Part shown: in pieces, positions 16,236-32,523 of the stretch
How positions within the stretch are numbered: position 1 is the first letter of the stretch
Layout: each line of letters begins with the position of its first letter
Origin: a bacterium
Lineage (GTDB): Bacteria; SAR324; NAC60-12
Direction: 5' to 3'
DNA: 64,000 nucleotides
Assembly (NCBI GenBank): GCA_965205865.1
Contig: CBDBHR010000024.1
Span: forward strand, 32,001 to 96,000
Notes under the pieces: model-generated
What the model saw: the letters and a program-made list of their open reading frames with translations, nothing else
The model's database searches: none
Told to the model about the DNA's origin: nothing
Position numbers and translations under genes: made by a program

Positions 16236-17258
16236 ATGGAAAAAGAGGGATGGATCGATGGTATGCCTCGTGATGAGCGGGGATTCTGGCACCCTGACAG
16301 AGGGACAGGCCCCCCCTAGTCCTTTGTTTGCCTGGCCACCCAAGCCCCTCGCGGCTTTCAAATACCTGTTTCGTTTCCCGGGTTACCTGTATCCGTGGCA
16401 AATCCTCTATTTTGGCCTCGCCACGGTCACGTGGCTCTACTTCCTGCCCGCCTTATCCCGCTGTGTCACCTTCCAACCAAGCTGGATCCTGGAGATGTTT
16501 GTCCGCAACCTCGTGCTGCTGGTCCTCATCTTTGGTGCCTGGCACTACTGGCTTTGGTCGCGAAAGTCCCAGGGGCTCCAGTACAAATACAACGCCGAGT
16601 GGCTGGAGACGGGAAAGCGGAAGTTCCTCTGGGGAGACCAGCTGCGCGACAACATCTTCTGGTGTTGTGTCAGCGCGGTTCCGATCTGGACGGCGTATGA
16701 AGTGCTGATGATGTGGGCCTACGCCAACGAGATGCTGCCCTACATCGATCCGCGAGAAGAGCCGGTCTACTTTATCGTGCTGCTTGTCTGTATACCTATC
16801 ATTCGACTCTTCCACTTCTACTGGGTCCATCGTCTCTTGCACTGGCCCCCCCCCTCTTCAAAAGGATACACTACATCCATCACAAAAACATCAACCCCGG
16901 GCCCTGGTCCACTCTTGCCGCGCATCCGATTGAGCACATTATTCTCTTCAGCAGTGTGCTGATTCACTGGATCGTGCCCTCGCATCCCATCCACGTGCTG
17001 ATGAACATGCATCACAACACCATCAACGCGCATCATGGGCATCTCGGCTTCCAGAAGCTGGTCCTCAAGGGAAACCTCCAGGTTGGCGGTGCCAGCAGTT
17101 ATTTTCATCATCTGCATCACCGTTACTTCGAGTGCAATTACGGAGAAACCGTCGTGCCGTTGGATCATTGGTTCGGGACCTATCACAATGGCTCTCCCGA
17201 GGCCCACGAAGCGATCCTGAAGAAGCAAGCCCAGAAAAACATGAGGCATAGTGCCTAG
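16236..17258 (+). CDS. Sterol desaturase / fatty-acid hydroxylase family protein, split by two frameshifts in C-runs (C7 at 16310-16316, C9 at 16846-16854)
   Basis: Three frames join: MEKEGW...RDERGFWHP / PLFAWPP...HFYWVHRLLH / HYIHH...HPIE...HHLHH...NYG. Confidence 0.85.
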
Positions 17259-19276: not shown

Positions 19277-21028
19277 CCCAAATTGAGCGATTCTAAAAAA
19301 GGATCAGATTTTCAAGATGATTTTTTTGCCTGAGAAAGGCAATCATTCTGAAATCAGATTTTGATCATCAAATCCATGGATGTTTGAGTGAGAATGAGCA
19401 TCAAAATGCTGTTTTCAGATGTGGAAGGTCTTCATTTCTCATGTTTTGGACGCACTTATCCCCTTAAACTTTAATGTTTTTGTTTTTTAATTGAAGCGAA
19501 ACCCGTTGATCAGATTGGCGCCAATGCGTGCTGGCAGGTGGCAAATAGTTGGTCCAATTGCAAGCGCTCAAAGGTCTTTTTTGGTATTTTCAAGATCAGT
19601 TTTCCGGCATGACGAAGCAGTTTGCCTGCCGTATCAAGAAACTGGCGCCGGAAGGTATCAGCATACATCGTTACCGCAATCACTGGCTTGCTGACATCTT
19701 CTTTGAAGGATTCGAAGAGGTTATTGCCAAGCAGCATCAGATAGTACCATGCGGTATTGGAAATGAAGTCCTTGAAGGGAAGTTGTTGATGACCAAAGTT
19801 TTTCAGCGCCCGGTTGGCCAGTTCATCCTTTCCCCGTCCGTGGTACGAGCCAAGGATGCTATGAGCATCGATGCGCTTTTCTTCAGCGGCTTGGCTGAGT
19901 TGGCCATCAATGGCCTCTCCCATACCAAGGTTCGTAATGATCACGCCATCATGATCCAAACCCGGCAAAGAGAGTTGGCTATCGTGTTCAATCAAGCGGC
20001 TGTAGATCGTGCGACGAGCCTTCTTCCATGTCCCCTGCTGGCTCTTAAACTCGGTGTACTGCCAGATCTCCTTCTTGCCCGATGAAGTGAAGGTCTGCCA
20101 GTCAGTGGCTTCTTCCGCAGCATTCCTCACATTGGCATAGGACTTTCCTCCGCTTCAGCTAACCGATGTTCAGTCGTTCACAGGTTTCAAAGATTTTTTC
20201 GTCAAAAAAACCGGTGTCCATGCGCACCATGATTGGTACATCATCTCGGTATTGGCGGCGAATCCTTTTCACGATATGAACCAGCATATTCTGAACAGTT
20301 TTCCCGTGATTCGAATGTTTGCTACCTCCGCGAAAAACTGCGTCAACCATATAACGACCCCAATTCATCTGCAGGGGATGAAATCCTTTGACCATCTTGT
20401 AAGTCGGCTGGACACCATGGCGTTTCAGGGCATCATCATTATCAAGTACCATCGAATCCAGACCCAACACAATCACCGTTGGACAAGTCTTCTTCAGTCT
20501 CCAGATAAACAGTATCTGCAGCAGATGACGAAACAGGTAGACTCGTACAAAAGAGAACTTTCCAAAAAATCTTTTCACGGCATGCGAGGAGGCAAGGTCT
20601 TGCTCACTGCATGACAGCAAGGCGGCATAACCCTCGCCCCTTTTGAGGTGATCGAACCAACTGAGATGACGGCTGCTGCCGTCCATGAAAAAACAGAGGA
20701 TCTGCGCAAAAAAATCAGAGACAGCAATTCCTTTTTTATTTTTACGCATCGAACCAAACAACCTTTCGATGATCGGCATCAGCCGAATGCTTTGCAGATA
20801 CTGGGCAAACAAGGCCAATCCGGCACGACTTGTCAAGTGTTCATCGGTTGGCTGAATGGCATCAATTATCTGTTTCTTTTTATCCTGAACTGTTATATTT
20901 TTTCCCATAAAGCTCTCTACCTGTTGGGTTGTGTTAGATTTTGTGAATTTTTTTATTTTAACCACTGAAATATAACACATTTTTCCCAAGGTTGGGAGCT
21001 TTTTTTATTACGAATCGCTCAACTTAGG
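19277..21028 (-). mobile_element. IS1380-family element; transposase broken by a stop plus frameshift near 20155
   Basis: IRs CC(C/T)AA(A/G)TTGAGCGATTC; 5-bp TSD CAATA (19272, 21029); LTSRAGL, LDSMV, RMDTGF, YHGRGKDE motifs. Confidence 0.9.
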
Positions 21029-21206
21029 CAATAGTGAATTGGTTTTGATTCATTTTCGTAACTATTCAGGTCTCTGAAAAACCCGTTTAGTTAAATATCA
21101 TTAAAAAAGATTCCCGGGGAGGATCGATCGTTTTCACGTCCTCTCACGATATTGTTCAATCGATCGGGAACCCTTTCCTTCACTAAAACAACTTAACGAT
21201 GGCATG

Positions 21207-21235
21207 ATCCTAGAACAACAACAACCCAATGTCAA
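21207..21235 (-). promoter_or_regulatory. Probable original SBP3 promoter, now separated from its gene by IS1380
   Basis: TTGACA-N17-TAGGAT on the minus strand. Confidence 0.65.
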
Positions 21236-21409
21236 CTCCCCAAGGCAAAATAAATGCGGGATTCGCAAAAAAAAATCAATAAATCAACGAGGGAGGCGAT
21301 TGATTGTTATTGAAAATGTTGGAAGGCAAAGGACTGGGATTTTTCATTGACTCACGATTCAGTTGCCTTGAACTGTGTGATTTCGGGACCCCATACCTTT
21401 CAATATTAA

Positions 21410-22335
21410 GAACTTATCCTTTAATAACTTGAAAATTGGTATTTCCTGCATTATTTTTGTCATCATGTTCAACCATAAACGCATGGAGGCTATATGGCAA
21501 AAGTACAGTCGTGGGAAGTATCTGATTCATTTTGGGCCAGAGTGGAGCCACTGATACCAAAACCCAAACGTGACCCGAACAAGACCTACAAGCGCAAACC
21601 CGGTGGTGGTAGAAAGCCAATGCCTGCGCGCCAAATTTTCGAGGGAATTGTATATGTTTTGCGCACCGGTTGTCAATGGAGAGCCCTTCCCAAGGAAAAA
21701 TATGGGAGTCCTAGTGCCATCCATGCTCATTTCATGCGTTGGAATGAAGCGGGTTTCTTTTTGTCGCTTTGGCAAGCCGGACTTGCCGAATATGATGAGA
21801 TGGAAGGGATCTCCTGGAAATGGCAAAGCATAGACGGCACGACTGTCAAAGCCCCACTGGCTCAGGAAACCGTTGGTCGAAACCCGACTGACAGGGGAAA
21901 AAAAAGGGAGCAAGCGTCATTTGCTGGTTGACGGCCGTGGTGTCCCGCTGTCCCTCGTCGTAACCGGGGCGAACCGGCATGATGTGACACAGTTGGAATT
22001 GGTCTTGGAGGAAATCGTCATTGCGCGGCCTGAGGGCATTGAACAACATCTGTGCGCAGACAAAGGCTACTACGGTGAGCCAGCATCACAGATAATTCGA
22101 TCCAATGACTATGTGCCACATGTGAAAAAACGGGGTGAAGAGATTCAAGAAAAAAAAGCAAATCCCCAATACAGACCCAGAAGATGGGTCGTCGAGGTGA
22201 GCCATTCATGGTTCAACAGGTTTCGCAAGATAATGGTCCGATTCGAAAAATATAATCAAACTTATCTCGCACTGCTTCAATTGGCTGCAGCTATCATAAC
22301 TTACAGGAAAGTTAATGTTATTTAAGGATAAATTC
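21410..22335 (+). mobile_element. IS5-family element with two ORFs (21494-21931 and 21873-22325) joined at an A8 run
   Basis: 19-bp IRs GAA(C/T)TTATCCTT(T/A)AATAAC; TAA TSD; LRTGCQWRALP, IDGT, ADKGY, RWVVE motifs. Confidence 0.92.
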
Positions 22336-22693
22336 TAAATGTCGCTGCGATGCTCTCCGGCTTTGGGCAGGAGTTCGCAGTACGGGAGGGGTGGGTGGCT
22401 TCAAGATAAATTTCGGAGCGCCTTCTGCGCATGATTCGTGTTTCTTTGGGCGTAGGGAGAGATAATGAGTTGATGAATAATTCGGAAATATAATCGCAAT
22501 TTGGCGTTTTCTGACGTTTCCAGCGTCGTTTGTTGCCATGCCGTCTCATCTGCATGTTATCTACGATTGCTTTCAATTTATTAAGCATGTAAAATCACAC
22601 GTTTTGTTAAATACGAATCAAGACTATGGTCCATAAAATGAGGGGACTGCGCCCTTATCAGTCTTTCCCTATTTTGCTCATATTGGAGGTGAT

Positions 22694-23197
22694 TTGAAGC
22701 GGGAAATGGAATTTGAAGAGATCGATTGGGAAAGTTGGCAAGCCAAAGAACGGGCGACTTTGCTGTTTATCATTTTGGAGGATCAAATCTTGATGATTCA
22801 TAAAAAGGTTGGCTTGGGAGCCGGGAAAATCAATGGTCCCGGAGGGCGTCTGGAGCCAGGGGAAACTCCTCTCGAGGCAGCAATAAGGGAAGTGCGGGAA
22901 GAGATTTGCGTGACTCCGTCAGGAGTGACGAAAATGGGAGAGTTGCGCTTTCAGTTCATTGATGGGTACTCGATCCATGGCTATGTATTCAAAGCCAATG
23001 GTTATATAGGGGATCCCCAGGAAACGGAAGAAGCCATCCCTATGTGGTTTTCGGTAAACGCGCTTCCTTATGAGAAAATGTGGGCCGATGATCGGCTTTG
23101 GATGCCATTGTTGCTGGAAGGAAAATTTTTCGATGCCCGCTTTTTGTTTGAAAAGGAGAAAATGCTGGGACATCGGGTGAGGGTGATTCCTTGCTGA
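22694..23197 (+). CDS. NUDIX hydrolase, MTH1-like 8-oxo-dGTP diphosphatase
   Basis: Nudix box GGRLEPGETPLEAAIREVREE; MWADD motif. Confidence 0.88.
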   Translation: MKREMEFEEIDWESWQAKERATLLFIILEDQILMIHKKVGLGAGKINGPGGRLEPGETPLEAAIREVREEICVTPSGVTKMGELRFQFIDGYSIHGYVFKANGYIGDPQETEEAIPMWFSVNALPYEKMWADDRLWMPLLLEGKFFDARFLFEKEKMLGHRVRVIPC

Positions 23198-23352
23198 ATA
23201 TTTTTTTGTCTCATTCAAATATTCAAATCATTTGTTGTAATAATCTGGAAATAACGCTATCTCGGTTACATCCATATAAACACAGGAAAGGAGATTGCTA
23301 TTTTTACCATTGTTGAAAAGCTTCTTTTTCCCTTTTTACATAAGAGACTGTT

Positions 23353-24796
23353 ATGAATTCACTACCAGAGGGTCTGATCATTGTCAGCAAACGTGATTGT
23401 CCGACCTGCGCCTTGATTGAACCTGTTTATCACCAATTGGCCTCGGGCAAGACGCCACTGACAATTTTCACCCAGGACGACCCCGCATTTCCTTCCGGAA
23501 TGGATTGCGTGGTGGCAGATACCAGTTTGGAACATTCTTATCGACTGAAAATCGAGACGGTTCCCACGCTGATTCGGGTGGACAATGGTCGTGAGAGGGA
23601 ACGACTGGTAGGGTGGCGCAAGGAGGAATGGCAGGTCTTCACCGGGATTGCCTCGTTGGGGGAAAGTCTGCCGGATTATCGTCCGGGGTGCGGATCCATG
23701 AGTGTGGAACCTGGCATTGCAGATGAGCTTGCATTGCGATTCGGGGATACCGAGATGAATGCCCGCAGGATTCGGGTTTCAGCCATGGAAGATGAAATGG
23801 AGGCATGCTTTGACCGGGGTTGGTCCGATGGTTTGCCTGTTGTGCCTCCCACAGAAATTCGCGTATATCGCATGTTGCAAGGAACCAAGCGGGCGCCCGA
23901 TAAGGTGGTGGGAGTCATACCTCCCAACCAGATCCCTTGCACCGTGGAGAAAGTGGCTATCAATGCGGTTTTGGCAGGATGCAAACCGGAATACATGCCT
24001 GTCGTCCTCAGCGCAGTGGAGGCGGCATGCATGGAAGAATTCTGTATGCACGGGTTGTTGTGCACCACGTACTTTTCCGGTCCCATTGTGATTGTGAGCG
24101 GACCCATTGCCAAAGCAATTGGCATGAATTCGGGAATCAATGCATTGGGACAGGGGAACCGTGCCAATGCGACCATTGGAAGGGCGCTTCAATTGATCAT
24201 TCGCAATGTGGGGGGGGGGGGGACGACCCGGAAAAATAGACCGGGCCGCTTTGGGCAATCCTGGGAAATACACTTTTTGTTTTGCCGAAAATCTGGAAGG
24301 GAGTTCTTGGGATTCTCTCTCCAAAGAACGAGGATTTGAATCAGAGGCATCTACAGTCACGCTTTTTGCGGGCGACGGTACGCAAGGTGTGGCGGATCAG
24401 CTCTCCCGCGAGCCGGAATCGTTAATCCTTTCTCTGGCCCATTCGCTGCGAACTGTTGTGAACTATAAATTGGCTATGTCGGGGGATGCATTTTTGATCA
24501 TCTCACCGGAACACAGCCGGGTATTTGAACTAGCGGGATGGTCCAAGGCAAATGTAAAAGAATCAATCAATCAATTGCTCCGGCTTCCTGGCAGCGAAAT
24601 GATTCGGGGAGCCGGAGGCAATTCAGAGGGAATGCCTGAGCGCTTCGCAGACCAGGTTATTCCTAAATTCAGGCCAGGGGGCTTGAATATCGTGCGCGCC
24701 GGAGGCAAGGCAGGCTTGTTTTCCGCCATCATTGCCGGCTGGGTAGCCAGCGGGCCTACCGGCAGTATACCAGTAACCAAGGAGATTATAATATGA
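23353..24796 (+). CDS. Thioredoxin-fold (CPTC) + DGLPVVPPT-domain protein, about 480 aa, split at a G13 run (24210-24222)
   Basis: Frames join as RNVGG(G)RPG; KRDCPTC, WSDGLPVVPPT, VEKVAINAVLAGC, GNRANATIGRA. Confidence 0.82.
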
Positions 24797-25326
24797 AAGA
24801 AAAACGAATATTCCTCGATCCCACATCGGAGCATTCGCCAGCCAAACGGGATCGCATTGCTCGACCCGCGTCTCTGGAAGGCTTAACAGTGGGACTGCTG
24901 GACATTTCCAAAGCGAAAGGGAATGTCTTTTTGGATCAAGTTCAATCAGAGTTGAGTAAACGCGGACTGATGGTCAGACGGTATCAAAAACCCACTTTTG
25001 CCCGAATTGCGCCCACTGCGATCAAGCAGTCGATCACGACAGAATGTGACGTGGTGGTGGAAGCGCTGGCCGATTGAGGCTCCTGCGCATCGTGCAGTGT
25101 GCACGATATCATCGACTTGGAAAAGCGGGGTATTCCGGGAGTCTTCGTCGCTTCGACTGAATTCGAGGAGGCTGCTGCCAGTCAGGCTTCGGCATTGGGA
25201 TACGATCCGGCTCTGGTTTTAGTACCGCACCCCATTCAGGATCGGACTGACGAGGAGCTTCGGGTGATTGCGAATAATGCCATCGAACCAATTCTGGCAT
25301 CAATCAGTGCCGAAGCGACCCATTAA
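24793..25326 (+). CDS. UGSC-family selenoprotein, 177 aa, Sec at codon 95 (TGA 25075-25077)
   Basis: ORFs 24793-25077 and 25099-25326 share a frame and are bridged by ALAD-U-GSCASCSVHD; SECIS-like hairpin follows. Confidence 0.88.
25089..25107 (+). promoter_or_regulatory. Candidate bacterial SECIS hairpin
   Basis: ATCGTGCA-GTG-TGCACGAT: 8-bp stem, loop starts with G, about 20 nt after the UGA. Confidence 0.7.
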
Positions 25327-25340
25327 ATAGAGGAGAATTA

Positions 25341-25811
25341 ATGTCTTTAGAAAATGCTTTGCAAGACATGAGGAGCAAAATAGGAACAGAAACTCGCGTC
25401 AGTGATTGGGTGGAAGTCACACAGGAACGTATCAATCAATTTGCCGAAGCCACCGGAGACCATCAATGGATCCATGTGGACGTGGAGCGTGCCCAAAAAG
25501 AGTCGCCTTTCGGAACGACGATCGCCCATGGCTTTTTCACGCTTTCTCTGCTTCCTTATCTGGCAGGCTTGGGGGGCAAAGTAGGCGCGGAATATGGTGT
25601 GAAGATGGGCGTTAATTATGGCTGCAACCGACTACGATTTCCCCACCCGGTTCCCGTGGGGTGCCGATTGCGTTTGAGGACGGTACTGAAGAGTATCGAA
25701 GCCGTCGAAGGTCAGAACGCCCTGCACTTGATCAATGAAAATACGTTTGAAATCGAAGGAATCGACAAACCGGCCTGTGTGGTCGAATCCGTTTCCCGCA
25801 TGTATTTCTAG
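25341..25811 (+). CDS. MaoC-family dehydratase
   Basis: FAEATGDHQWIHVD, TIAHGFFTLSL, NYG..RLRFP. Confidence 0.92.
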   Translation: MSLENALQDMRSKIGTETRVSDWVEVTQERINQFAEATGDHQWIHVDVERAQKESPFGTTIAHGFFTLSLLPYLAGLGGKVGAEYGVKMGVNYGCNRLRFPHPVPVGCRLRLRTVLKSIEAVEGQNALHLINENTFEIEGIDKPACVVESVSRMYF

Positions 25812-25917
25812 ACGGAACAATCGAAAATTCCCTTCTTGGGAAGAGTGGGGGTGGCATGTATTGCCGTGCGCCTCGCATTTGACGCTACCCCTCCAAGAAG
25901 GAGAATTTCACTACATA

Positions 25918-26149
25918 ACCCGAGTTCGAGATAAGAATTTAATAAATTCAATATGTTATAGAATCTTCATATCTTAGAGAAACCTTGTCATTCCTGCGAG
26001 ATCCCTGCGTACGCAGGGAAGGAATCAAGAGGTATGCAGCCAGACTGAAATCCGGATCCCCGCTCCCCGCTTTCGCGAGGACAAGTTTCGCGAGGATGAC
26101 ATATAAACTAGGATACTCATATTATTAATTTCTTATCTCGAACTCGGGT
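25918..26149. mobile_element. 232-bp MITE with IS982-like ends and an internal REP/RPE-like palindrome
   Basis: 28-bp IR ACCCGAGTTCGAGATAAGAA(T/A)TTAATAA; 6-bp TSD TACATA. Confidence 0.8.
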
Positions 26150-26192
26150 TACATAAGGCGAGTAGGGAGTTTTCGATAAGATTCTATTGGTG

Positions 26193-28085
26193 TTAGAAAT
26201 GAATCTCCAGAGCTTCGAAGGATTGCAATTGAACCGGTTTGGTCAATGCTTCAAAAGTAGGCAATACAACTTTGATGTAAAACCGGACCGTTTTGATTTT
26301 GCTGTCATAAAACCTGGCTTGCGCGTTGTCTTGTAAAAATTCTGAAACATTGGTCTCCCGCACTTGTTTTTCCTGTTTGAGAACTTCGAATTTCTCTGAG
26401 GCAATCAGGGCTTGTTCCAACAAAAAGAATCCCGCTGTGACCGCAGAAAAATGCATCATGAATGGAGTTGCGAAGAGGGCCGGCCCTTCTATTCCTTTCG
26501 GTCCGAGAAGGGATTGAAGGGTCATGGCGGTTTCGGCAATTTTCTCTGCGGATTTGGCCCATTGCCGCACAACTGTTCCCAGCACAGGGTGTTCTCGATG
26601 GGATTGCGCCAATTGATGGAATTCGCCCAATTGGCTGGTGAACAATTCACCATTACGAATGATCATTTTACGTCCGAGTAAGTCCAGAGCCTGGATGCCG
26701 GTTGTGCCTTCATAAATGGCTGTAATCCGCAAATCACGGTAGAGTTGTTCCAGCGGGAAATCTTTGGTGTATCCCACGCCACCCAGGATTTGAATACCCG
26801 TACGGACGATATCCAAGCCCACCTCGGTGCTCCAGGCTTTGCACATGGGAGTGAGCAATTGCACCCGGTCATCAGCAGCTTTTCTCTCTGTTTTCTCTTC
26901 TGCGGCAACAGTAATATCCAAAAACTTGCCAGTGGCATAAAGCAAGGCTCGGATGGCTTCGACCCGGGCTTTCATGTGCATTAGGTTGAGACGTACGTCC
27001 GGGTGTTCGATGATCGCCACCCGAGTAGCATCGGCATCTCCCATTTTGCTGATATGGGCTCCCTGAACACGTTGTTTCGCATAAGCCAGAGCATTTTGGT
27101 AAGCCGCGCTGGCCACTGCCAGGGCAGAGGTTCCTACCCCCAGACGGGCGCCGTTCATCATCTGAAACATCTGTGCCATACCTTGTTGTTCCGCGCCAAG
27201 TAAATAACCGTAGCACTGGTCATCTTCCCCAAAATTCAATACGGCCGTAGCGCTACAATGGATCCCCATTTTCTCTTCCAGGTTTGCCAGCGTCACATCG
27301 TTATTTTCTGCCACGCTTCCATCGTCATCGAGGCGAAAGGCAGGAACCACGAACAGACTCAGTCCCTTAGTGCCGGGAGGCGCTCCCTTGGTGCGTGCCA
27401 GAACCGTATGGATCACGTTGGTACCCAAGTCATTGTCCCCTGATGAAATCCAGCATTTTGTCCCTTTGATCTTGTATCTACCATCTCCCGTGGGTTCAGC
27501 GCTGGTATCGCCAGCTCCCACGTCGGAACCGGCATGAGGTTCGCTGAGGCACATCGTGCCCGTAAATTCGCCACTAAACATTCTGGCAACGTATTGTTCT
27601 TTAAGCGATTCCTTACCAAATGACTCAATCAATTCGGCAGCGCCTTCGGTCAGGGCAAAATACATGGTCAATCCCATATTGCCTCCCGCTAATCCTTCAT
27701 TAATAGCCATTTGCACGAGACGGGGAGCGCCCTGTCCCCCATATTGAGCACTGGTGGATAGAGAAGCCCATCCTAATTCGTAAGCTTGGCGGTAGGGTTT
27801 ATGGAGACAAGCGGGGACAATGGCGCGGCCATTGACCATTTTGCAGCCTTGCCGGTCTGATTCGGCACGGGTAGGATTGATGATCTCGACCGCAAATTTA
27901 TGCCCTTCTTCCAATAAGAGGTTGATCGTATCCTGATCGAAGTCGGCATAACGGGGGAAGCGACTCAATTCAGCCAGATTGAGCCATTCATCGAGGACAA
28001 ATCGAATGTCTTGGGAATCGATGATTAAATCGGTGCTGCTCATTAGTTTCTCCTTGTTCTGCAGTTGCGTCTCTGTCATCATCAT
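26193..28085 (-). CDS. Acyl-CoA dehydrogenase
   Basis: TMCLSEPHAGSD, GTKCWIS, EEKMGIH, GGVGY, IYEGT motifs. Confidence 0.95.
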   Translation of the reverse strand: MMMTETQLQNKEKLMSSTDLIIDSQDIRFVLDEWLNLAELSRFPRYADFDQDTINLLLEEGHKFAVEIINPTRAESDRQGCKMVNGRAIVPACLHKPYRQAYELGWASLSTSAQYGGQGAPRLVQMAINEGLAGGNMGLTMYFALTEGAAELIESFGKESLKEQYVARMFSGEFTGTMCLSEPHAGSDVGAGDTSAEPTGDGRYKIKGTKCWISSGDNDLGTNVIHTVLARTKGAPPGTKGLSLFVVPAFRLDDDGSVAENNDVTLANLEEKMGIHCSATAVLNFGEDDQCYGYLLGAEQQGMAQMFQMMNGARLGVGTSALAVASAAYQNALAYAKQRVQGAHISKMGDADATRVAIIEHPDVRLNLMHMKARVEAIRALLYATGKFLDITVAAEEKTERKAADDRVQLLTPMCKAWSTEVGLDIVRTGIQILGGVGYTKDFPLEQLYRDLRITAIYEGTTGIQALDLLGRKMIIRNGELFTSQLGEFHQLAQSHREHPVLGTVVRQWAKSAEKIAETAMTLQSLLGPKGIEGPALFATPFMMHFSAVTAGFFLLEQALIASEKFEVLKQEKQVRETNVSEFLQDNAQARFYDSKIKTVRFYIKVVLPTFEALTKPVQLQSFEALEIHF

Positions 28086-29127: not shown

Positions 29128-32100
29128 TCAATTGAGAAAACGGGTTTTCAAGATTTCTTCGAACTCTGAATTTTTCAGGCGCTCAAAGTCTGTTTCGGTC
29201 ACATAAAAATAATCGTTGACGTGTGCTCCGGTCGTAGTAATCAGGGTTTGTTGAATAGAAACACCAACTTGGTCAAAGGTCTCAGACAACTTATAAAAAA
29301 GAAGTGGCGCATCCTGAGTTGTGATTTTCACCACCCGGTAATCCCGATTTTGCCGGGTAAACGTACCCTGCTGTTGAACAACCTCATAGCCTTTGTTATC
29401 ACTTTCCATGAAATCCAAACGCAACTTTGACTGAAACGATATTGGGGTCAGGGGTTCATTGTGAAGATCCGGTAAAGTTCCCATGGTGATATTCTCTTCC
29501 AGGGTTTTGGCAAACACCATATCCTGGGTGATGCCGTTGGCTTCGAAGTAGTAACAATAGGCCACGCGTCCGTCTTCAAACAAGATCTTGTTCATTTTTG
29601 CCATACGAATATTGATATTTTGAATGCTCATCCCATAAGCGACACGATGGAGGATTTTAGGCTGATCATGGACAAAAATCAGGGTACCGATTACTTTACC
29701 ACGGGGAGTGACCACGGTGCTGAAGATGGAACGTTTTTCAAAATCGGCGAACTCCAGAAGTTTTTGTCGTAACCTATCGGGAGATTGACTCAACAAATAA
29801 CGATTGGGAAAGGTATTGAAGAACCAGTTGAGGGTGGGTTGAATATCCGCTGTCAGTTTGAGCAACGTGTCCCTGCTAACATATTGGTTGATACTTTGAG
29901 TCAATTTTTCCGTATACTGTTCGACGCCTTCCCCGTCCAGACTTCCCATCTTTAAATACCTCCAATAATTCTCCAAATCTCCTTTCACAGTCCGCAATCG
30001 TTCGTACTCTCTGGAGTTACTGGAAGATAGCGGTTCCCACAGGGTTTTGGCCAGACCTTCATTGAGGCTTCGATGAATCAACAGGTTGATTCGGGTCGAG
30101 GATTCCAGGGATTGTTTTTGATTGTCCAAATAAATATTGATCAATTCAATAGGATTTTTCATGTCCGTGGACATGCGGATTTCGATATAGGCATGGTAAG
30201 CTTCGTCAAAAAAAGTGCGCAGGTTTTTTGTATCATTAGCAGTGGTTTCACTAACGGCGCTGTAATCGGATATGTTGATGAGAAAGAGGAGGATCATGCG
30301 GATCAAGTCACGGTCCGCAATTTCAAATGAGCGTTGAAGGGCTTGATCGAAATAGGTGGAAGTCTTGCTCAATTCGCCAAAAGTCATGTGATGAAAAATC
30401 AAAAGACTGACAAGGTTGAACAACTCTTCGTCTTCATAGCCAAGACGCTCCAGGGCCTGCACGGCAATACTGGTGCCGGAATTCTGGTGTTTGGTTCTGG
30501 GATCGATTTTTCCAATATCGTGAAACAATACGCCCCACTTGAGGGCAAGCAGATGTTCGGGTCGGAGGAAATGATACAATTCCGTGTAGTTTTTCTTCAG
30601 ATACTCGAGCTCTTTGTGCGAGTTTTCCAATGCCCGCAGGGTATGGTCGCAGACAGTGTATTGATGATAACTCAGGTTGCGTAACAAAAAACGTATTTGA
30701 TTGCATTCCGGAATAAAACGTCCAATGAGAGTGTCGGTATCCCTGCTCGTGCTGGAAGGATCATCAATTTCGAACATCGTGCGTAAAGCTTGAGCGGCAT
30801 GCGGAGAGAGCATGATTTCAGAAAAGCGATTCCGTACTTCAGAACGATTGGCCTCAATGACTTCCGGCGTAATCGTGTGTACGACATTGGCCATCTCATC
30901 TTTGAGTTCGCTGGAAAGGGAGTAACCCGAGTTGCCGATATAGATAAAAAGATCCAACAGCATGGCCGGGTTATTGAAAATGAGGGAAAGCGGGATTTGA
31001 GGAAGCCCCTCGATCGCACGGATTTCAATTATTCGCTGTTTCCTCAAATTGATGGTGGCTTGAAAATTGGAAAAAGTGCGGACGATAGTGCGGTCCAGCA
31101 AACGATTGAGGATTAACTCAGACAATTCCTGTACATTAAACACGATGCGCAGGCGGAAACGGTCGAATTCATCAAAATTCTTAAAACGATTTTTCTTGAG
31201 CAAATACAGTTTTTCCAGATTGTCGGAAATAACGTTGCTCTGCCAATCCTCCAGCTTAATCCCTGCACTCTTAGCTTCCTCATCGTAATAAAATTCCTTG
31301 CTTGCTCCAACAAAATTACGCAAATCATACAACAACTCCAAAGCCTGGGACAATTCCAGCGTCTGCCGTGGGGAAAGGATACGTTTTTCAATGAGGAGGG
31401 CCAGCAATTCAGCAGTCTGGCTCGGAAAGACAGCTAAAGTGGCCGCAGCGATCCACAATGGTACTTGCAGAGTTCGCAACCCTCCAAACTCTTCCTTGAG
31501 GTCCATTTTATTCAATTCAGGCCGTCTGGCGGATTGGTAAGTATGAAGCTTGCTGAGAACGTAGGACTCATAAGGCAAGATTTCAAAAAAACACTGTTTC
31601 AGGCGTACCATCAACCCGTCACTACCCAACAGTTTCCGGCTTTCCAAGATGGAAGGAATCGTGTGGAGCATTTCTGCTTGGGTAAAGCGTGACAGGTCTT
31701 CATCGATTTCAAAATACTGGTGGGCTGTTTCAATTCCAGTCTGATTGAGTAGATGTTCGAGGCGGATGATGAACTGCTTGAGTAATTCAAATTCTCCTGC
31801 ATTGAGCCGTTGCGGGTTCAAACAGTATCCGATGTCACGGTCCGATGAAAAACTGAGTTCTCCCCGGCCATACCCTCCCCGGGCAAAAATAACCGTGCAT
31901 TCCAGAATGTGTCGCGGGTCCAGCCGCCAATCCTGAAGAAGGGTCAGCTGTTCTTGCAGTTGGGCGATTCTTTGACGATAATTTTCGATCTCTCTCTCCA
32001 GGTTATTGCGAATTTCTTGATAATAAAGACGCTCGGATACGTTTCCGGATTGTTCCGGCACCGTGTCGAGATGTTTCTCGAGGATAGAGAGTTTTTCTTC

Positions 32101-32523
32101 TTTTTCAGGAAGGACGCGTTGTTTGAATGTGAGTTCTTTTCGAGATTCGATGACTTGAATACTTTTCAGAACCGGAAGATCTTCCAGAGTAAAATCAAAG
32201 GCCACATGGATGACGCTATCCATCAGATGGGTATTTTGCGTCAAAATTTCAAAAGAATGCGCTGCTTCTAAGTTGACTTCCGCAATTTTTTTTGTCTGCA
32301 CTTTAAAATAAGAAGAAGTGACTTCACAGAAAATTTTTTCCCTTTCGACAATATAAGCGTGCAACCGAGTTTTTTCACGCCGCAGTTGCAATTGGGCTTG
32401 CCCGGCTTGCAAAAGATTTTTCAACGCGATGATATGCTTGTCTCTCAATTCTGTTTGTTCCAGTAAGCAGAATTGCCGCAGAAAGGGATAGAGTTCAACT
32501 GGCGCGTATAGATTATTCACCAA
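29128..32523 (-). CDS. glnD: GlnD-like PII uridylyltransferase/uridylyl-removing enzyme (1131 aa)
   Basis: GGYGRGEL..SDRD nucleotidyltransferase motif, DLKEEFGGLR, YHQYTVCDH...HDIGK (HD), C-terminal ACT-like segments. Confidence 0.75.
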   Translation of the reverse strand: MVNNLYAPVELYPFLRQFCLLEQTELRDKHIIALKNLLQAGQAQLQLRREKTRLHAYIVEREKIFCEVTSSYFKVQTKKIAEVNLEAAHSFEILTQNTHLMDSVIHVAFDFTLEDLPVLKSIQVIESRKELTFKQRVLPEKEEKLSILEKHLDTVPEQSGNVSERLYYQEIRNNLEREIENYRQRIAQLQEQLTLLQDWRLDPRHILECTVIFARGGYGRGELSFSSDRDIGYCLNPQRLNAGEFELLKQFIIRLEHLLNQTGIETAHQYFEIDEDLSRFTQAEMLHTIPSILESRKLLGSDGLMVRLKQCFFEILPYESYVLSKLHTYQSARRPELNKMDLKEEFGGLRTLQVPLWIAAATLAVFPSQTAELLALLIEKRILSPRQTLELSQALELLYDLRNFVGASKEFYYDEEAKSAGIKLEDWQSNVISDNLEKLYLLKKNRFKNFDEFDRFRLRIVFNVQELSELILNRLLDRTIVRTFSNFQATINLRKQRIIEIRAIEGLPQIPLSLIFNNPAMLLDLFIYIGNSGYSLSSELKDEMANVVHTITPEVIEANRSEVRNRFSEIMLSPHAAQALRTMFEIDDPSSTSRDTDTLIGRFIPECNQIRFLLRNLSYHQYTVCDHTLRALENSHKELEYLKKNYTELYHFLRPEHLLALKWGVLFHDIGKIDPRTKHQNSGTSIAVQALERLGYEDEELFNLVSLLIFHHMTFGELSKTSTYFDQALQRSFEIADRDLIRMILLFLINISDYSAVSETTANDTKNLRTFFDEAYHAYIEIRMSTDMKNPIELINIYLDNQKQSLESSTRINLLIHRSLNEGLAKTLWEPLSSSNSREYERLRTVKGDLENYWRYLKMGSLDGEGVEQYTEKLTQSINQYVSRDTLLKLTADIQPTLNWFFNTFPNRYLLSQSPDRLRQKLLEFADFEKRSIFSTVVTPRGKVIGTLIFVHDQPKILHRVAYGMSIQNINIRMAKMNKILFEDGRVAYCYYFEANGITQDMVFAKTLEENITMGTLPDLHNEPLTPISFQSKLRLDFMESDNKGYEVVQQQGTFTRQNRDYRVVKITTQDAPLLFYKLSETFDQVGVSIQQTLITTTGAHVNDYFYVTETDFERLKNSEFEEILKTRFLN

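Follow-up and report, generated by a model that had tools for sequence, protein, structure and literature searches.

A UGSC selenoprotein and its thioredoxin-fused partner as a putative two-protein redox unit in SAR324 and other bacteria

Examination of a 64,000-nucleotide stretch of contig CBDBHR010000024.1 (assembly GCA_965205865.1, positions 32,001 to 96,000 of the forward strand; hereafter the window) from a bacterium of the SAR324 lineage NAC60-12 revealed two overlapping genes, one coding for a selenoprotein of the UGSC family and the other, directly upstream, coding for a partner protein in which a thioredoxin-fold domain and a cysteine-bearing linker precede a large domain of about 340 amino acids. 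That the partner and the UGSC protein constitute one redox unit with near-obligate pairing is well supported by their adjacency across many phyla, by their fusion into single polypeptides and by the interchangeable redox modules carried by the partner. We consider it probable, with moderate confidence, that the pair acts as a selenocysteine-dependent two-protein reductase driven by a thioredoxin-type module. It is read as a reductase mainly because the N-terminal modules found on the partner, namely thioredoxin, AhpC/TSA and the ferredoxin:thioredoxin-reductase catalytic chain (FTR-B), all supply electrons to disulfides.

The pair and its two proteins

Pairing was surveyed at 80 UGSC loci from 80 species, whose phyla include SAR324, Alpha-, Beta- and Gammaproteobacteria, Latescibacterota, Acidimicrobiia and other Actinomycetota, Chloroflexota and Hydrogenedentota. 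The partner gene lies upstream of the UGSC gene on the same strand at 78 of these loci, in many phyla, and within 100 nt at 74; L064 and L070 have no partner, and at L068 it is found 1.1 kb away. With the pair adjacent in the loci of 78 of 80 species, the association is far beyond chance. Three cultivated bacteria carry the pair, Halopseudomonas salina, H. xiamenensis and Pseudomonas sp. MYb185 (loci L026, L047 and L057). In one gammaproteobacterial metagenome-assembled genome the main pair is accompanied, at a distance of 2 kb and on the other strand, by a divergent further pair resembling partner and UGSC (36% and 33% identity; L061:2552-4085, minus strand).

A census of fusions among the 150 best of 5983 partner-family cluster representatives found 16 in which a UGSC domain is fused to the partner, in both orders. 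One of them (P0232) contains a whole fused UGSC domain in the cysteine form, 12 start with the UGSC part that follows the selenocysteine codon (order UGSC-partner) and 3 close with the UGSC part before that codon (order partner-UGSC). At the N-terminus the module is of AhpC/TSA type in 6 of the 150, P0133 among them, and an FTR-B chain in one (P0173); it is missing in many forms of about 350 amino acids and at five loci of Latescibacterota. These fusions and exchangeable modules, together with the adjacency, are the grounds on which the two proteins are treated as one unit, and they bear out the thiol-selenol unit that an initial annotation, made from the letters of the window, had proposed for the same two genes. 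The FtrB-type module of P0173 also matches the NCBIfam model 'FtrB family double-selenoprotein', at 80.6 bits and hence below its cut-off of 160.

The second gene of the pair belongs fully to the UGSC family. Its product scores 148.8 bits against PF24696 (E-value 2.1e-43; cut-off 25) and 149 bits against NF041046 (cut-off 125), and it has all the marks of the family, including the UGSC motif, the in-frame TGA and a hairpin of the selenocysteine insertion sequence (SECIS) type. The codon at the selenocysteine position is TGA in the loci of all 80 species. Downstream of it, 93.9% of 592 cells of the hairpin alignment (74 distinct sequences) are paired, a share reached by none of 500 shuffles, and the pairing is lost when the partner strand is slid. 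Three of the eight pairs show changes on both sides, for example Ser UCG/His CAC to UCA/CAU, and G23 and U24 of the loop are invariant. Because single-sequence folding of the 71 nt after the UGA gave a stability equal to that of shuffles (z -0.01), the case for the hairpin is carried by this comparative count. An Rfam scan of positions 22500 to 26400 at E-values up to 1 returned no match. The source genome (4.74 Mb in 30 contigs, 92% complete) contains SelA, SelB, SelD and tRNA-Sec, along with a single UGSC gene and a single partner gene. Family scores, TGA conservation, the covarying hairpin and the decoding machinery together establish selenocysteine decoding at this locus. The SelD match of the same genome (L127, G000:C23:146967-147887, minus strand) contains one in-frame TGA and is probably a selenoprotein too.

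In the AlphaFold2 model of the UGSC protein (pLDDT 91.8), which shows a flavodoxin-like alpha/beta fold, selenocysteine 95 (Sec95) caps the N-terminus of helix 96-111 immediately after strand 87-93, with Cys98 one turn further on; the 2008 paper of Zhang and Gladyshev (PMC2398784) had guessed a thioredoxin-like fold. The spacing U-x-x-C-x-x-C-x-x-H is invariant in 37 sequences. Cysteine forms are scarce: Table 2 of PMC2398784 lists 255 selenocysteine and 21 cysteine forms in the GOS data set, the former in 37 samples, and the TGA is kept by 20 of the 21 matches to UGSC that five sister-family genomes contain. Such scarcity suggests a chemistry that cysteine would perform poorly, as in the Stickland reductases (glycine/sarcosine/betaine and D-proline reductases). 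A search of the ESM Atlas with the UGSC part of a cysteine-form homologue gave no usable match.

The N-terminal domain of the partner has a CxxC at the N-terminus of a helix in a thioredoxin fold, and the conserved proline loop is present. Pfam thioredoxin models recognise it poorly, Thioredoxin_2 reaching only 16.8 bits against a cut-off of 27, and P0003, the closest homologue among the matches listed, had no Pfam match at E-values up to 0.01. Residues G112, C113 and G114 of the linker are conserved in at least 90% of 37 sequences; the PGCGS linker is kept in the AhpC/TSA-fused P0133 and absent from forms that lack the thioredoxin domain. For the large domain, neither the halves nor the whole matched any Pfam or NCBIfam model, in the window protein or in distant relatives, and a search of the ESM Atlas matched only its own unnamed family. 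This family is large, with at least 8000 proteins among the matches listed and 5983 cluster representatives at 50% identity with E-values up to 0.001. Among 59 diverse members, D159, L161, A202, A208, G209, G250, N272, R277, G326 and G449 are invariant, C210, C308, R270, E311 and W318 are at least 90% conserved, and so are G160, P162, P165 and P166 of the DGLPVVPPT motif.

Structure comparison was made with the AlphaFold2 model of P0003 (pLDDT 87, pTM 0.81). Structural alignment of the whole partner model listed only thioredoxins, the thioredoxin domain filling the list, and a partner profile run against PDB sequences likewise returned thioredoxins only, with a second profile (A2) giving nothing meaningful. 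The sole matches of another kind came from Foldseek on the whole model and were class I Fe-S fumarate hydratases (E-value 2e-4, probability 0.87), with a TM score of 0.2 and a root-mean-square deviation of 16 Å. Alignment of the large domain with the class I fumarase of the source genome itself by hhalign gave a probability of 0.2% and does not back the Foldseek lead. A match of the large domain to a characterised, unrelated enzyme had been named in the initial annotation as one observation that would speak against its proposal.

The locus in the window

The features of the locus are as follows (positions of the window).

22694-23197 (+): MutT-like NUDIX gene
23353-24796 (+): partner gene, 479-amino acid product with thioredoxin fold, cysteine linker and large domain of about 340 amino acids; divided in the window between frames 23353-24339 and 24206-24796
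23353-23652 (+): thioredoxin-fold domain, residues about 1-100, with CPTC at 23398-23409
23683-23697 (+): PGCGS linker; its Cys113 may act as a shuttle between the thioredoxin and large domains
23827-23853 (+): DGLPVVPPT motif of the large domain
23980-23982 (+): codon of Cys210 (AGCKPEY), the conserved cysteine of 'Unknown_1' (see below)
24210-24222 (+): 13-G homopolymer causing the frameshift; the true count is most likely 9, the surplus being an assembly error
24278-24280 (+): codon of Cys308 (YTFCFAE), second conserved cysteine of the large domain, in the downstream frame
24793-25326 (+): UGSC family selenoprotein gene, 177 amino acids; ATGA overlap with the partner stop at 24793-24796
25075-25077 (+): in-frame TGA of selenocysteine 95, in the context D-U-G-S-C-A-S-C-S-V-H-D
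25089-25107 (+): SECIS-type hairpin (8-bp stem, GUG loop), beginning 11 nt past the UGA
25341-25811 (+): MaoC-like hot-dog dehydratase, 156 amino acids (PF01575, E-value 8.9e-24)
26193-28085 (-): acyl-CoA dehydrogenase, 630 amino acids, convergent

The layout agrees in most respects with what had been described earlier. The CPTC thioredoxin fold, the PGCGS linker and the DGLPVVPPT domain are where they were reported, the MaoC gene does start 14 nt after the UGSC stop (25324-25326), and the acyl-CoA dehydrogenase converges on the operon. The ATGA coupling of partner and selenoprotein is likewise real, but the splitting of the partner gene between two frames had gone unreported. The frame that opens at 23353 closes at 24339, and the ATGA is reached only in the +1 frame; the switch coincides with the 13-G run. 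We attribute the break most likely to a homopolymer error of the assembly, since contigs from all four public runs compared over 23900-24600, belonging to four studies (X1, X4, X5 and X6), lack 4 G at 24210 and so read 9 G, and since intact homologues exist. One of these, P0003, has 479 amino acids and shares 98% identity with the N-terminal 290 residues, and its NVGGGRPGK at the position of the run requires 9 G; another is the intact 479-amino acid partner gene of a genome of the same genus (G001; 87% identity). Partner homologues are uniformly of about 479 amino acids. The alternative, a pseudogene produced by slippage at the run and hence a module that is dead in this organism, is suggested by the deposited sequence with its 13 G and two frames. 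A minority 13-G form is conceivable as well, since X1, whose contig is otherwise identical to the window over 701 bases, may be the source sample and hence not independent, and since contigs lose rare variants. Against the pseudogene stand the 9 G in all four runs, the otherwise identical X1 included, and the state of both gene halves, which match an intact homologue at 93-96% identity and show no other defect; we judge the pseudogene very improbable. The only other G/C homopolymer of at least 8 in the window, a 9-C run at 16846, may conceal another frameshift.

The genes that adjoin the pair in the window were compared with those at the other loci. MaoC was found beside the pair at none of the 80 loci by tblastn. 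Among the 69 same-strand genes that start at most 300 nt past UGSC (11 of the 80 loci had none), a Pfam search revealed no hot-dog protein; it identified MsrB (SelR) in 12, SelA in 6 and MurB in 4, the rest being singletons or without Pfam match. The order NUDIX-partner-UGSC-MaoC is kept in G001, where MaoC is syntenic and 84% identical, while a genome of the same family (G004) and another SAR324 locus (L001) keep NUDIX-partner-UGSC and lack MaoC. MaoC is thus a genus-level neighbour rather than a conserved component, although it is probably co-transcribed with the pair here. Within 6 kb of the pair, tblastn detected an acyl-CoA dehydrogenase gene at 6 of 80 loci and clustering at 8, and none was found in the 12-kb stretch around the pair of G001; this gene and the NUDIX gene are neighbours, not components. 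The inclusion of MaoC and the acyl-CoA dehydrogenase in the operon, as first proposed, is therefore withdrawn. The gene-neighbourhood survey that had been suggested as a check consequently upholds the co-occurrence of partner and UGSC and leaves MaoC out. In other phyla the thioredoxin-fused orthologue stands alone among housekeeping genes (for example lpxK, kdsB and murB). Clustering of open reading frames found no third family at more than 15 of the 80 loci, and the families found follow taxonomy. In Halopseudomonas, Pseudomonas and relatives (L008, L026, L032, L047, L051 and L057), selA comes right after UGSC at a distance of about 20-90 nt; the pair and the selenocysteine machinery may travel together in these genomes.

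Promoter and terminator scans at the locus gave no signal exceeding shuffles. Part of the stretch is present in the RNA runs X17-X20. Two insertion-sequence remnants lie just upstream of it (19510-22325), one being a DDE_Tnp_1_4 transposase split into two open reading frames (19510-20130 and 20159-20989, minus strand) and the other a transposase of IS4/5 type whose two frames overlap (21494-21931, DUF4096; 21873-22325, DDE_Tnp_1). Downstream, a protein of 1131 amino acids (29128-32523, minus strand) has weak matches to HD (E-value 6e-5) and GlnD uridylyltransferase (E-value 2.5e-4) models and resembles a divergent GlnD-like regulator.

Proposed mechanism and alternative readings

In the two-protein reductase that we propose, the large domain would be the catalytic or substrate-binding part, in which D159, R270, N272, R277, E311, C210 and C308 are invariant or nearly so, and the UGSC protein would be the redox part, a flavodoxin-like domain presenting Sec95 at a helix N-cap within U-G-S-C-x-x-C. 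The selenolate of Sec95 would attack an electrophilic atom, either in a substrate that the large domain binds or in an adduct formed on C210 or C308. Cys98 would then resolve the intermediate to form a selenenylsulfide, which Cys113 of the linker and the CPTC of the fused thioredoxin-fold domain would reduce by thiol-disulfide exchange. The cellular NADPH/thioredoxin-reductase system would finally recharge the thioredoxin-fold domain, and the net reaction would be a two-electron reduction of the substrate. The order of the relay, the role assigned to each cysteine and the reductive direction of the reaction are all inferred.

Partner matches occur in 15 of 31 related genomes. Genomes of the sister family have 4 to 19 large-domain matches, mostly stand-alone forms of about 350 amino acids and often in tandem, together with 2 to 8 UGSC matches. 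A single UGSC gene may stand beside two or three partner paralogues (G030:C127, G019:C72), and there are also paralogue clusters with no UGSC gene on the contig (G029:C12, G025:C172). The neighbours of the paralogues include family-5 solute-binding proteins, family-III CoA-transferases, MmgE/PrpD, enoyl-CoA hydratases and MaoC, as well as aconitase-type dehydratases, FAA hydrolases, methyltransferases and ornithine cyclodeaminase, and such neighbourhoods are typical of catabolic islands. In one orthologous subgroup of the stand-alone pair, present in four sister-family genomes (L102, L103, L106 and L107), a Cof-type HAD hydrolase (PF08282) follows right after UGSC, often with an FAA hydrolase nearby. 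The 3.8-Mb genome G030 has 98 SBP_bac_5, 50 CoA_transf_3, 19 large-domain and 8 UGSC matches; its examined loci, 84 kb or 2.2% of the genome, contain 6 SBP_bac_5 and 3 CoA_transf_3 where about 2.2 and 1.1 are expected. This enrichment of about 2.7-fold, for which no formal test was made, was judged too weak to use. A link of the module to organic acids or CoA is a weak lead, and the CoA-linked substrate suggested in the initial annotation has no firmer standing than that.

Several observations weigh against the proposed reductase as formulated above. The large domain may also work alone, because some of its paralogues lack a UGSC gene on their contig. P0232, the homologue with a cysteine form, reads C-G-A-S and lacks the resolving cysteine at +3, so that the pair formed by U95 and C98 is not universal. 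No conserved third gene names a pathway for the module, and Foldseek with the whole model recognised no relative of the large domain among solved structures beyond the fumarate hydratases at TM 0.2.

Two more specific versions of the reductase differ in the substrate that they assign to it, and we regard either one as possible but doubtful. In one of them the pair would resemble the Stickland reductases, the large domain being a substrate-specific component like 'protein B' and the UGSC protein a small selenium carrier, akin to GrdA/GrdB/PrdB, that reductively cleaves a C-N, C-S or C-X bond in small organic compounds or amino acid derivatives and is recycled by thioredoxin. The UxxC motif resembles that of PrdB (Table 2 of PMC2398784), selenocysteine is almost never replaced by cysteine, as expected where cysteine substitutes poorly, and the surplus of large-domain over UGSC matches in the sister family, with one UGSC gene serving as neighbour to two or three paralogues, would suit a shared carrier. 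The catabolic type of the paralogue neighbours and the MaoC gene that follows the pair in this genus point the same way. Yet UGSC has no match to Pfam GRDB (PF07355) at E-values up to 0.01, and the partner matches no pyruvoyl-proprotein family of the GrdE/PrdA type; PF07355 was not found anywhere in the source genome either, a negative of little weight because control genomes gave no match to it. The catabolic neighbours, moreover, belong to hugely expanded families that exceed background by the untested factor given above, and the thioredoxin-fused orthologue sits among housekeeping genes in other phyla. The latter setting is more in keeping with a constitutive function than with an inducible pathway and so favours the other version, a repair or detoxification reductase acting on oxidised metabolites or on oxidised residues in proteins (for example sulfoxide, N-oxide, hydroperoxide or persulfide) in the manner of thioredoxin-fused MsrA/MsrB or of peroxiredoxins. 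MsrB directly downstream on the same strand (the 12 of 69 genes mentioned above, or 13 of 80 loci by clustering), the AhpC/TSA-type N-terminal domains and the MutT-like NUDIX gene upstream of the pair in the window, G001, G004 and L001 are all consistent with repair. The MsrB loci, however, all belong to Latescibacterota and so amount to about one event, and the NUDIX linkage is limited to one family. Peroxidase and methionine sulfoxide reductase families are usually rich in cysteine forms, unlike UGSC, and neither Foldseek nor the profile run against PDB sequences linked the large domain to a known fold of methionine sulfoxide reductases or peroxiredoxins.

A reading of another kind takes U95, C98, C101 and H104, with C210 and C308 of the partner, as ligands of a metal or an Fe-S cluster and the pair as an electron transfer module or a (de)hydratase. 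The invariant spacing of the UGSC motif would suit metal binding, and Fe-S fumarate hydratases are the only non-thioredoxin structures that Foldseek returned for the partner. Those matches have the low TM score reported above and the profiles do not support them, the third cysteine is missing in GOS sequences and the second in P0232, and the fused thioredoxin, AhpC and FTR-B modules indicate disulfide chemistry instead. We consider this reading improbable.

Comparison with known systems

Listings of the UGSC family go back to the metagenome selenoproteomes of the mid-2000s, and it is among the most abundant selenoproteins of ocean and freshwater metagenomes. Its function is given as uncharacterised in reviews of 2022 and 2026, the latter stating that such families 'remain largely uncharacterized'. 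A fusion of UGSC with a domain called 'Unknown_1' was printed in 2008 (PMC2398784). We identify the large domain with 'Unknown_1', because the block printed in Fig. S1A of that paper (AINAVMAGCKPEY...), in which one cysteine is highlighted, is identical letter for letter to the C210 region here. The accessible text of the 2008 paper holds a block of 60 residues and the fusion; the fusions with thioredoxin, AhpC and FTR-B, the near-obligate operon, the second conserved cysteine and the paralogue expansions are not described in it. As far as the accessible UGSC selenoprotein literature goes, the operon, the fusions with the three modules and the paralogue expansions are undescribed. The novelty claimed for the system in the initial annotation accordingly holds for its biochemistry, none having been assigned, and fails for the UGSC family and the 'Unknown_1' fusion, which are in print.

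The pairing and fusion of UGSC with one uncatalogued domain, the thioredoxin-type input modules and the cultivated carriers turn an orphan selenoprotein into a defined two-component enzyme that is open to expression, to assay with NADPH and thioredoxin reductase and to structure solution. As regards the locus itself, the frameshift is put right as a probable assembly error, and MaoC and the acyl-CoA dehydrogenase drop out of the proposed system.

Among characterised enzymes, thioredoxin-fused methionine sulfoxide reductases such as PilB (thioredoxin-MsrA-MsrB) and the selenocysteine forms of MsrA and MsrB are alike, in the comparison proposed here, in having a selenocysteine or cysteine nucleophile, a resolving cysteine and recycling by an attached thioredoxin fold. 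Their folds and families are unrelated to those of the pair, which an MsrB gene adjoins in Latescibacterota. The class I Fe-S fumarate hydratase/tartrate dehydratase alpha-type domain resembles the partner model only to the extent of the Foldseek match already discussed.

Glycine/sarcosine/betaine and D-proline reductases use thioredoxin as reductant. They (GrdA, and GrdB/F/H with GrdE/G/I; PrdB with PrdA) share with the pair a selenocysteine nucleophile in a UxxC or CxxU motif, a separate substrate-specific protein and the rarity of cysteine replacement. The pair is not a member of these systems: it has neither PF07355 nor a pyruvoyl-proprotein family, its thioredoxin is fused to the partner, and it occurs mostly in aerobic bacteria of water and soil, in contrast to the fermenting clostridia of the Stickland reductases. 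A tentative and rather unlikely extension would make the pair the prototype of a third class of selenocysteine-dependent substrate reductases, next to those of the glycine type and the D-proline reductases and at work in aerobic aquatic and soil bacteria, in which UGSC would be a small, shared, GrdA-like selenium carrier serving several substrate-specific 'Unknown_1' proteins with electrons from fused thioredoxin, AhpC or FTR-B modules. If this were so, the paralogues would reductively cleave different organic or amino acid derivatives brought in by the adjoining transporters.

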